Origin: a virus | Taxonomy: Duplodnaviria > Caudoviricetes | Direction: 5' to 3' (one strand) | Length of the DNA: 37,366 nt | IMG/VR virus record: IMGVR_UViG_3300020431_000017 | Location: 1-37,366 of that record | In this document: positions 1-33,710 of the stretch, in pieces | Position numbering within the stretch: position 1 is the stretch's first letter | Layout: each line of letters begins with the position of its first letter | Translations under genes and position numbers: made by a program | The notes under the pieces: generated by a model | Seen by the model: the letters and a program-made list of their open reading frames with translations, nothing else | Database searches by the model: none | Told to the model about the DNA's origin: nothing

Positions 1-1226
1 TCTCCCCCATTTCTGTAAAGATTGCCAAGAAAAAGATTATTTCCCGGCAAACCACGCATTTCAAGTTCTACTTCAATATCTTTATCTGGAGCATAAAATG
101 CAATATTTTGAAAACCTGACTTGTCAACTTCATCATTTTGATCCAATCGACTTGAGTCCTTTGTAATTTTATATTCTACACCATCTACCAAATTAACTGT
201 TTCTATTGTTGCCTGAGTTCCATTGTTTATTGGATAATACTCAAAATTGAGGAAATTTTTATCTGCAGAACTAACAACATCTAGTTCTACAGCATCAGTG
301 AAAATAGGAGAATTATTTGCTCTTGGATGAGTCACTTTGCACTTTAAATTATAAGTATCAACTTGACCAGATTGAATAGTTAAAGTGGGTGTTTTTGATC
401 CAGAAACTCTTACAGTATCTCCACTCAATCCAATACTAGGATCTTGACTTACAGATCCTGAAGGAAAGTAATAATTTGAAGCATATGATGAGGCAGTAGT
501 TTGAGAAATACATGATAAAGTTGTTGAACTTGAACTATTACCACCTACTACGTTTTGAATAAAAACTTGCAATTGTTTTCCAATTGCCTTGAAGTTTCTA
601 AAAGTACATAGATATACTCCATTTTTATATAAATTTACTGCTCCAACATCAGAGTTTACAACAACACCTATAATATCACCATCAACTGGGTTATTAAGAA
701 TATTAAAGCGTGAAGTTTGTGAACCTACTTCAACTCTTGTTCCGGTTGCTTCACCAAATCCAAAGGGTTGGTTGAACCAAACACACATTCTAACTCCAAT
801 ACTACTATACCATGCTTGATATCCTTGAGTAAAATGGGTCTGATCCATAACACCAAACCAACCAGAATTAGTCCAGTTATTTCCAGAAACAGCAAATTCA
901 GAAAAATATAGAGTATCAAAAAGAGGAGCTTCATATTTAATGGAGTTATTATAACCACCTCCTTGCGTTCCACTTGGTGGACAAATTGCAGTTTTAGTTC
1001 CTATTGTACCAGCACTTGACGAAGAACTAAATGCAGGTCCAATTTCATTAACATCTGGAGAATAGAAAAAACTGCTAATTTCTGATTTTGTTGGAACCGA
1101 CTCTCCATCCTCCAAATCAACACCAGATACTTGCCACTGATATGAAATCTCTTGAGTTGAGTTATCTGAAACATCTGCAGCCGATGTAAATGATGCAGGA
1201 TTTCCCTGTGTTATAATTCTTGACAT
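1..1226 (-). CDS. Virion structural/fibre-type protein, partial (3' end runs off window): Ig-like domain with inserted SPRY-like domain, then start of a Gly-rich domain
   Basis: Not in ORF track. Hand translation from ATG at 1226 (TAATG overlap with upstream stop) is open to the window edge: MSRIITQGNPASFTSAADVSDNSTQEISYQWQ...DGDIIGVVVNSDVGAVNLYKNG...VSGSKTPTLTIQ...YNLKCKVTHP...EMRGLPGNN...NGG. Confidence 0.8.
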   Translation of the reverse strand, partial: MSRIITQGNPASFTSAADVSDNSTQEISYQWQVSGVDLEDGESVPTKSEISSFFYSPDVNEIGPAFSSSSSAGTIGTKTAICPPSGTQGGGYNNSIKYEAPLFDTLYFSEFAVSGNNWTNSGWFGVMDQTHFTQGYQAWYSSIGVRMCVWFNQPFGFGEATGTRVEVGSQTSRFNILNNPVDGDIIGVVVNSDVGAVNLYKNGVYLCTFRNFKAIGKQLQVFIQNVVGGNSSSSTTLSCISQTTASSYASNYYFPSGSVSQDPSIGLSGDTVRVSGSKTPTLTIQSGQVDTYNLKCKVTHPRANNSPIFTDAVELDVVSSADKNFLNFEYYPINNGTQATIETVNLVDGVEYKITKDSSRLDQNDEVDKSGFQNIAFYAPDKDIEVELEMRGLPGNNLFLGNLYRNGG

Positions 1227-8182: not shown

Positions 8183-8186
8183 ACAA

Positions 8187-8270
8187 TGCGAGTAGGGAGA
8201 CTTGAACTCCCACGAGATTGCTCTCAACAGATTTTAAGTCTGGTGCGTCTACCGATTCCGCCATACTCGC
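8187..8270 (-). tRNA. trnL-UAA: tRNA-Leu(UAA), long variable arm, CCA not encoded
   Basis: GCGAGTATGGCGGAATCGGTAGACGCACCAGACTTAAAATCTGTTGAGAGCAATCTCGTGGGAGTTCAAGTCTCCCTACTCGCA: acceptor stem GCGAGTA/TACTCGC, anticodon loop CT-TAA-AA, TTCAA T-loop, discriminator A. Confidence 0.95.
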
Positions 8271-8275
8271 ATGAG

Positions 8276-33196: not shown

Positions 33197-33222
33197 AAAA
33201 AATGAGAGGTTTCCCTCTCATT
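33197..33222 (-). terminator. Intrinsic terminator of the riboswitch/DUF4278 unit
   Basis: AATGAGAGG-GAAA-CCTCTCATT-TTTT, perfect 9-bp stem with GNRA loop. Confidence 0.85.
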
Positions 33223-33246
33223 TAACACTATTCAATTTTTTAAAAC

Positions 33247-33414
33247 TTACTTTACGTAAGTACGACCACGATAGCAGAAAGTCCCGTGAGACTCTTTGCT
33301 TTCTACACAACGAGTAGCATACTCAACACCACGATATGAGGTGTGAAGAACTTGTGCGTCGTGAATAGCAGATGCTTTGTTGATCTGCTTCTTGATCATG
33401 TTTAGTGTATTCAT
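33247..33414 (-). CDS. DUF4278-like small protein (55 aa)
   Basis: Not in ORF track: MNTLNMIKKQINKASAIHDAQVLHTSYRGVEYATRCVESKESHGTFCYRGRTYVK*; two YRGxxY motifs; AGGAG RBS. Confidence 0.8.
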   Translation of the reverse strand: MNTLNMIKKQINKASAIHDAQVLHTSYRGVEYATRCVESKESHGTFCYRGRTYVK

Positions 33415-33447
33415 TGTAGGTACTCCTAAAGTAGTTGGATTTTAATC

Positions 33448-33673
33448 CGTTCCTTTAGTCGTTTGCGTCCCATGGATAGCACTCAGGTGTAGATTCCTTA
33501 ACGGTCTCTACTAACTCTACCTTAAAAGCATCAGAGAGATTCTCGTTTGCTTTCATCTTCAGGATAATTCCATCAGCTTGTTGGCAGGTGAGTGATGAAT
33601 ATAAAAGAAATTCAATCATGGGATCAACGGTTCCGTTGCGCGACTTACTTGCGTCCGATATCTCGGATGAACG
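33448..33673 (-). ncRNA. Glutamine riboswitch (glnA-type), apparently double/nested aptamer
   Basis: CGTTCA-[TCCGA GATA TCGGA]-CGCAAGTA-AGTCG ... CGACT-AAAG-GAACG follows the glnA aptamer layout (P1 CGUUC/GAACG, P2, loop-E AGUA, P3); upstream of a DUF4278-like gene. Confidence 0.75.
33455..33619 (-). CDS. Small protein (54 aa) embedded in the riboswitch
   Basis: Not in ORF track: MIEFLLYSSLTCQQADGIILKMKANENLSDAFKVELVETVKESTPECYPWDAND*; its start and stop codons lie in riboswitch helices. Confidence 0.65.
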   Translation of the reverse strand: MIEFLLYSSLTCQQADGIILKMKANENLSDAFKVELVETVKESTPECYPWDAND

Positions 33674-33681
33674 ATAGGTCT

Positions 33682-33710
33682 ATTATAGACCTCATAATCT
33701 ATTTAGTCAA
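33682..33710 (-). promoter_or_regulatory. sigma70-type promoter of the riboswitch transcript, with overlapping late-like ACTAAATA
   Basis: TTGACT(33710-33705)-17 bp-TATAAT(33687-33682); predicted +1 near 33675, immediately before the aptamer. Confidence 0.85.

Follow-up and report, generated by a model that had tools for sequence, protein, structure and literature searches.

A selected small gene inside a hairpin of a likely glutamine-binding, two-core RNA in cyanophages

Locus and gene context

The window analysed here is the whole 37,366-nt stretch of DNA of IMG/VR record IMGVR_UViG_3300020431_000017, a 37-kb viral record that is about 18% complete. DNA matches were obtained to 439 phage records bearing the names Synechococcus, Cyanophage, Prochlorococcus or Marine, and because of these matches the source is considered a T4-like cyanophage by kinship. 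A two-gene unit is present on the minus strand, on which the features below are read. It consists of a nested 54-codon gene (positions 33455..33619) followed by a 55-codon DUF4278-like (IF17-like) gene (33247..33414), with a promoter before it and, from its sequence, an intrinsic-terminator-like hairpin at its end (33200..33223). The downstream gene carries the Shine-Dalgarno sequence AGGAG at 33423..33427. It matches phrog_545 with an E-value = 6e-35 and PF14105 with an E-value = 3.6e-4 and 21.3 bits, which is under the curated cut-off of 25.3. The original prediction that the element precedes a DUF4278-like gene agrees with both matches, weak as the PF14105 match is.

The promoter is of the sigma-70 type (TTGACT-17-TATAAT, 33682..33710, minus strand) and shows 11 of 12 consensus matches. 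Patterns of that kind occur three times in the window versus 0.14 expected, and most relatives also have a sigma-70-type promoter upstream of the element. Overlapping the promoter is a TAAATA motif (33705-33700, minus strand), which we take to be late-box-like. A perfect inverted repeat, AGGTCTA-TAA-TAGACCT (33692-33676, minus strand), has the -10 box at its centre, with arms that co-vary in many relatives; since TAAATA overlaps the promoter, a later transcript could start with this hairpin. Contigs of relatives in four metatranscriptome runs span about 33250-33660. These runs were picked with the window and hold 5-7% of its words; as contigs, the matches indicate no start site, strand or level. 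Elsewhere in the window there is a tRNA-Leu(TAA) gene (8186-8271, minus strand) and a perfect TTGACA-17-TATAAT promoter (32846-32818, minus strand), the -35 box of which lies inside the loop of a terminator-like hairpin, GGGG-TTGACAA-CCCC.

Two nested cores

When relatives are compared, the leader consists of two glutamine-aptamer-like cores, the inner one within the P3 loop of the outer one, and the nested gene fills the P2 loop of the inner core. The outer core has the order CGTTC-A-P2a-CGCAAGTA-P3-AAAG-GAACG-G. Its P1 (the PK helix), recognised from sequence, fold and a compensatory form, has the 5′ strand CGTTC at 33669..33673, which pairs with 33452-33448. The outer P2 hairpin, P2a (33654..33667; from fold and relatives), is the site of a second, homologous gene in some relatives. 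The outer junction CGCAAGTA (33646..33653) holds the equivalents of G18 and C19 together with the AGUA strand of loop E, as judged from the RF01739 consensus and from excerpts of PMC6698751 and PMC5393176. The 5′ strand of the shared P3, AGTCG (33641..33645), pairs with 33461-33457.

The inner core is closed by P3 (AGTCG/CGACT) and contains CG, the inner P1 hairpin CAACG-GAAC-CGTTG (33625..33638), A, the inner P2 (P2b) with the gene, and CGCAAA. The 5′ strand of P2b, TCCCATG (33617..33623), includes the start codon, and its 3′ strand, CATGGGA (33468..33474), carries the Pro-Trp-Asp codons; both strands follow from sequence and fold. The remaining stretch, 33447..33467, defined by conservation, contains the inner junction CGCAAA, the P3 3′ strand CGACT, AAAG, the outer P1 3′ strand GAACG and the G41 equivalent. 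This same stretch encodes the end of D-A-N-D and the stop. The statement in the original prediction that the last codons (W-D-A-N-D-stop) are also aptamer junction and P3 bases is therefore in agreement with the sequence. Its picture of one riboswitch aptamer around the open reading frame (ORF) holds in that the ORF lies in an aptamer hairpin, but there are two nested cores and not one. It missed the second core, and also a covarying helix that sets the stop codon against the downstream ribosome site.

The helices co-vary. Relatives were fetched by the 5′ RNA core alone and not by protein, which gave 244 loci; 18 duplicates, 9 truncated and 4 unparsed loci were dropped, leaving 213 distinct elements of subfamily 1. 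A second subfamily comprises 111 distinct elements from 120 loci. The inner P1, in subfamily 1, is GAACG/CGTTC in 192/213 and CAACG/CGTTG in 21/213, and mixed forms are not found; on a tree of 165 ORFs the CAACG/CGTTG form shows 11 changes for 13 carriers. The outer P1 remains CGTTC/GAACG in 18 carriers of the minor inner-P1 form, and takes the compensatory form CGTTT/AAACG in three relatives. It is non-pairing in 1/288, and no 5′ strand is within reach in 66/288. P3 is AGTCG/CGACT in 200 of the 213 elements, the remaining 13 pairing via G-U. The longer shared P3 of subfamily 2 displays T/A in 84, A/T in 21, T/G in one and is off register in five (n = 111). On covariation, then, the element's ends are brought together by the outer P1, the inner P1 folds locally as a hairpin, and P3 is common to both cores. 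In the ligand-free fold prediction P2b and the inner P1 form, while the outer P1 and P3 do not. In loci L132 and L149 other DNA interrupts or replaces the 5′ core, and the inner CGTTCA-P2b-gene unit remains.

The nested gene

A long inner loop is found in 197 of the 213 subfamily-1 elements, with a short hairpin in the other 16. An intact ORF (at least 40 aa, ATG within the first 16 nt) is present in 195/197 long inserts. The other two forward frames are open in 0/195, and the reverse frames are open in 10, 4 and 3. A further 80 loci were left out of these frame statistics because they had been chosen by protein. For 80 ORFs of 53 aa, dN/dS from non-independent pairs is 0.28, 0.23 and 0.20 over the three bins of divergence, versus 0.68-0.79 and 1.6-2.4 in the shifted frames of the same ORFs. 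The ORFs of subfamily 2 are intact in 70/70, one of which (L615) is a mis-parsed P2a gene. The conservation among homologues that had been proposed as a check is thus borne out, with the frame kept in 195/197 and dN/dS of 0.20-0.28; by comparative evidence the nested ORF is a conserved gene under purifying selection.

The gene varies from 50 to 69 aa among relatives. The protein of the window matches phrog_504, a phage protein of no known function, with an E-value = 2.8e-28 (residues 1-54 versus 1-53 of 53). It displays a hydrophobic start, Cys12 and Cys47, as originally noted, and a C-terminal W-D-A-N-D followed by TAA. Exactly two Cys are found in 293 of 294 distinct inner-loop proteins. The AlphaFold model is a two-helix hairpin (helices 12-24 and 30-43, mean pLDDT 83.5). 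A disulfide and export may be guessed from the two Cys and the hydrophobic start. A Pfam search with the protein gives no family, the model has no match among PDB folds at E ≤ 0.001, and only unnamed clusters of the ESM Atlas match. With a profile search, 300 proteins are reached at E ≤ 0.001; of these, the top 150 are nearly all short, nameless relatives. In Syn33 the annotation places the start of the homologue further upstream, giving a hypothetical protein of 79 codons. In L267, L299, L482, L508 and L559, shifted-frame nested ORFs of 92-93 aa run through the 3′ aptamer strand into the downstream start region and display no stop at P3.

Genes in either P2 loop

The outer P2 loop also carries genes. 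Long inserts there are intact ORFs in 31/31 cases in subfamily 2 and 42/46 in subfamily 1, and many have start and stop codons in opposite strands of one stem. Two of three tested outer-loop proteins match phrog_6471, and the outer and inner protein families are homologous (hhalign probability 96%, E-value = 2e-9). The two loops are found in all four possible combinations, filled or empty. Elements with a short hairpin and no ORF make up 41 of the 111 of subfamily 2, and a weak tree of 182 rows gives 16 switches between presence and absence of the nested gene. In L666 an outer-type gene is situated in the inner loop (E-value = 3e-25). The outer-loop small-gene family is seen in L209, L214, L217, L565, L572, L583 and others, where the leader is only about 12 nt.

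The stop codon and the downstream ribosome site

The stop of the nested gene is found at the P3 site in 184/197 subfamily-1 elements, and elsewhere in 11/197. Fold and covariation predict an OFF helix (33426..33458) in which CTAAAG (33458-33453), holding the stop TAA, pairs with CTTTAG (33431-33426), which runs into the start of AGGAG and closes a GGAT/ATCC hairpin. The helix is predicted in 274 of 276 subfamily-1 elements, with z = -3.0 for the window. Where the middle base of the stop faces its partner, the pair is A-U in 101, G-C in 113, G-U in 62 and A-C in none of the 276 parsable among 288 subfamily-1 elements; among 24 independent pairs the covariation is 12.1:0 in the predicted direction, with a median p of 0.0005. 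Comparison thus establishes a masking helix that co-varies through the middle base of the stop. ORF-less elements of subfamily 1 carry the same helix, and for this reason it is seen as a part of the switch into which the stop of the gene came to lie. Because one strand serves P3, loop E, the outer P1 and masking, the aptamer fold and the OFF helix would be mutually exclusive. On this comparative evidence the stop codon is a better-supported regulatory link than masking of the AUG.

Subfamily 2 differs, as the stop-helix covariation there is not significant (p = 0.18; 53/111 unmatched; 6 non-pairs) and the OFF helix is predicted in only 54/102 elements. Blocking of the aptamer strand lowers the computed opening cost from 8.3 to 3.7 kcal/mol, though blocking bases tends to reduce this cost anyway, and the mean unpaired probability of the five Shine-Dalgarno bases stayed at 0.40. 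In the ligand-free fold, the 5′ strand GUUCAU (33672-33667) is paired to codons 1 and 2 of the DUF4278-like gene (33414-33409). The commonest downstream start in relatives, ATGAAC (180/273), perfectly complements GUUCAU and may represent a second lock. An extra hairpin (e.g. GGATCC...GAGAAGG) is found between the aptamer 3′ end and the downstream ribosome site in L087, L473, L483, L494 and L514; the masking helix is still predicted in folds of L087 and L089.

A two-input switch and the passenger alternative

The reading that we favour, with a lean rather than with assurance, is that the nested gene lies inside the inner hairpin of a likely glutamine-binding two-core RNA, has its stop in the predicted masking strand, and that either glutamine or a terminating ribosome would likely turn the DUF4278-like gene on. 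In the OFF state, with no glutamine, P2a, the inner P1 and P2b would form and the 3′ strand would pair with the Shine-Dalgarno. With glutamine bound, the 3′ strand would instead be taken up by P3, loop E and the outer P1, leaving the ribosome site free, as in host gifB leaders. These leaders were measured as ON switches, and unmasking of the ribosome site is what the authors postulate (excerpts of PMC6212724). The original prediction held that a ribosome translating the ORF would melt P2/P3, which follows from the overlap; a ribosome on the last six nested codons would have to open P2b and P3, momentarily excluding the bound fold. When halting at the TAA it would also open the masking helix, giving translational coupling. 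A two-input ON switch is thought likely because the stop lies in the strand that masks the downstream ribosome site. If both inputs do turn the downstream gene on, the switch would lose sharpness when the nested gene is strongly translated. Against this explanation, the switch can exist independently of the gene, as seen in the ORF-less elements of both subfamilies (16/213 and 41/111).

The main rival to coupling is that the gene is a passenger. The riboswitch would control the DUF4278-like gene only. The small gene would have been inserted in a loop that tolerates length, a compact way of being co-transcribed from a strong promoter, and the stop overlap would have little regulatory effect. 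The common ORF-less forms, which keep the same switch helix, suit this explanation, as do the homologous genes of the outer P2 loop with their other stop positions, the L666 arrangement and the 16 gains and losses on the weak tree. However, the stop keeps to one helix position in 184/197 despite lengths of 50-69 aa, and reading those codons would, from the overlap, require opening of P2b, P3 and the masking helix. We consider the passenger explanation rather unlikely but worth keeping in sight.

A wider proposal, also put forward tentatively and thought doubtful as a whole, takes the two-pocket glutamine riboswitch of T4-like cyanophages as a gene-cassette scaffold, with exchangeable small disulfide-hairpin genes in either or both P2 loops. 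The RNA would combine two inputs like a logic gate: the nitrogen status of the host and the passage of ribosomes over the inserted gene would jointly determine how much of the inserted protein(s) is made relative to the phage-made IF17-like modulator of glutamine synthetase.

The start codon and its stem

The strands TCCCATG (33623-33617) and CATGGGA (33474-33468, minus strand) form seven Watson-Crick pairs, so that the complementarity around the ATG of the 54-aa ORF is confirmed at the coordinates first given. The chance of a 7-mer match anywhere in the loop is about 0.005 from loop composition. The basal TCC/GGA belong to the aptamer consensus, and only the outer pairs of P2b therefore count as extra. 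Long-range complementarity in relatives, a check named with the original prediction, is only partly kept: positions 1-4 pair in 107, 107, 107 and 106 of 107, but positions 5-7 in only 90, 53 and 49. The whole AUG lies within the stem in 71/239 relatives and its A is paired in 192/239. Pro codons before the Trp have A or G as third base in 29/35 cases versus 103/257 elsewhere in those ORFs (the sequences are not independent), which suggests some mild selection for extension of the stem over the AUG.

The original prediction was that folding of the aptamer sequesters the start codon. Extended to a full alternative, ligand-driven folding would hide the nested AUG in P2b and the main output would be glutamine-dependent shut-off of the nested gene. 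The 7-bp stem of the window, the frequent pairing of the A and the synonymous bias are in keeping with this, and the GGAG of 171/197 relatives (below) overlaps inner pocket bases. But P2b is predicted at a probability of 0.83-1.0 without ligand, the full AUG is paired in the minority of relatives just given, and the strongest covariation points at the downstream ribosome site. Sequestration by ligand-driven folding is thus unsupported in the form first given, and the alternative built on it appears distinctly improbable. From the partial pairing of the AUG and the folding of P2b without ligand, the nested AUG is probably damped at all times and not switched by P2b.

No obvious Shine-Dalgarno had been seen before the nested ATG, which is true of the window, where the inner P1 loop is GAAC. 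In this the window is atypical of subfamily 1: GGAG, formed by the inner P1 stem end and loop, precedes the ATG by 10-11 nt in 171 of the 197 relatives with the ORF, and is found in only 1/16 ORF-less elements. Once phylogeny is controlled for, the association of GGAG with the ORF falls short of significance (4.8:0 of 7 independent pairs, p = 0.06). Among long inserts chosen for non-GGAG loops, 25/26 still have intact ORFs, and GGAG is present in just 2/70 ORF-bearing elements of subfamily 2. GGAG consists of the G40 and G41 equivalents plus loop. Since both G's are pocket bases of the inner core, glutamine binding would likely lower initiation of the nested gene in GGAG relatives; damping of nested initiation via the inner pocket is what we infer.

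Identity of the aptamer

An Rfam scan of the window shows no riboswitch at the gathering cut-off. Within the leader's initial ~50 nt (33676-33623), RF01739 scores 22 bits against a cut-off of 35 and RF01704 scores 20.4 bits against 33, both below threshold. The RF01739 cut-off is passed by 3/5 ORF-less subfamily-1 loci, with the inner core as a P3 insert, and by 0/8 ORF-bearing loci; the miss in the window is probably due to the long insert. The outer core forms the three-way junction P1-P2-P3 with the CGUUC/GAACG P1 of RF01739 and lies upstream of a DUF4278/IF17-like gene (its PF14105 match being below the curated cut-off). The loop-E strand is GAAG in 139/213 and AAAG in 74/213, including the window, and AGUA is fixed by the search pattern. 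The long-range Watson-Crick pair (23-60 in RF01739) is present as C-G in both cores. Features of RF01704 are found as well, namely the CGCA linker with C19:G41 and G18. Only 1/20 loci (L110) passes the RF01704 cut-off, and no pseudoknot P2 of that type is seen in the window, where the 3′ tail makes a local hairpin and the OFF helix instead.

The glutamine-II pocket comprises C1:G40, G18>G2:C39 and C19:G41 (excerpts of PMC6698751), and these bases are retained in both cores. Among 288 elements the inner C19 equivalent is conserved in 284, the inner G41 in 288 and the outer G41 in 286; the outer C is set by the search pattern. The element is thus likely a glutamine-binding RNA. Glutamine riboswitch matches are reported in cyanophages and other marine phages (excerpts of PMC9964418, PMC9602691 and PMC9004378).

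A structured leader that has lost glutamine binding, or whose partner is a different ligand or a protein, would explain the scores under both Rfam cut-offs and the AAAG in place of GAAG; hosts of some glutamine-riboswitch phages are also reported without glutamine synthetase (excerpts of PMC9004378). Given the nearly invariant pocket bases of both cores, the passing of RF01739 by ORF-less relatives and a downstream gene of the usual DUF4278 kind, this is very improbable. That the RNA is two ordinary tandem aptamers, each with its own P1 and the gene in the P2 loop of the second, is barely credible even with tandem glnA RNAs known (excerpts of PMC2864571) and subfamily-2 halves matching RF01739 separately in 4 loci, since such a fold would put a C-C and a G-G mismatch into the window's sequence at places where nesting gives two perfect helices (constrained folds of -64.1 kcal/mol nested versus -56.8 tandem), and nesting is what the covariation of the inner P1, the outer P1 and P3 supports.

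A search of the glnA alignments in supplement 5 of PMC2864571 for two element patterns gave no match, but gaps break such searches. A two-piece tmRNA is ruled out, as ARAGORN calls none in the window and in 0/684 loci. CfrI, considered as a name, is unrelated and denotes an antisense RNA at psbA (excerpts of PMC2984593). L569 shows a manA RNA motif (1-119, minus strand) within 400 nt of the element.

Distribution and meaning

The two core patterns are estimated to occur in about 2,200 and 1,700 stored viral stretches. The only 6 matches in 185,579 cellular genomes (L321-L326) are MAGs or drafts of unrelated taxa and are probably phage contigs. As such switches escape Rfam scans, their numbers in marine phages are undercounted. 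The layout, as judged from the relatives, is real and widespread, and appears to be a glutamine riboswitch variant with a plausible coupling. A predicted metabolite-sensing aptamer can thus hold a whole selected gene in its loop, with the same bases serving start codon, stop codon, ligand pocket and switching strand. It may give cyanophages a direct route for sensing host nitrogen status and acting on nitrogen assimilation. A putative natural two-pocket glutamine aptamer also makes cooperativity testable.

Comparison with known systems

Homing-endonuclease ORFs sit in peripheral loops of phage group I introns, and their ends overlap paired elements. The phage element is alike in having a whole gene in the loop of a structured RNA, but it is a small ligand sensor and not a ribozyme, and no nuclease or mobility function is seen.

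The outer core resembles Glutamine-I (RF01739), for example the leader of Synechocystis gifB/IF17, in its CGUUC/GAACG P1, P2 hairpin, putative loop-E strands AGUA and GAAG (AAAG in the window) and a P3 beginning with A-U, as well as in its position upstream of a DUF4278 gene and the postulated translational ON logic (excerpts of PMC6212724). It differs in being phage-borne, in a P3 that closes a second, permuted core and not a short loop, in the whole gene within a P2 loop, and in a long-range pair that is C-G and not G23-C60. Similarity to Glutamine-II (Downstream-peptide, RF01704; excerpts of PMC6698751) lies in the CGCA linker and C19:G41, with equivalents of C1:G40, G2:C39 and G18 in both phage cores, and in the position before short DUF4278 genes, which in Glutamine-II are those of marine picocyanobacteria. 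In contrast, the phage element has two cores on one helix and no identified pseudoknot P2 of that type, and the short ORF known from Glutamine-II, yfr6, lies downstream of the aptamer and not inside.

In the literature searched, part of it as passages, no description of nested cores or of an internal gene was found. The nearest precedent, from excerpts of PMC11260477, is the metE B12 riboswitch of Mycobacterium tuberculosis, where a translated short upstream ORF inside the aptamer, uMetE2, alters downstream expression; at the ppe2 B12 riboswitch of the same species an upstream ORF drives the downstream gene by termination-reinitiation. uMetE2 is about 48 nt and overlaps aptamer sequence. The phage gene, unlike uMetE2, has 50-69 codons, is under purifying selection, encodes a predicted folded protein, is looped out of a hairpin, is optional and exchangeable, and has its stop in the switching strand.
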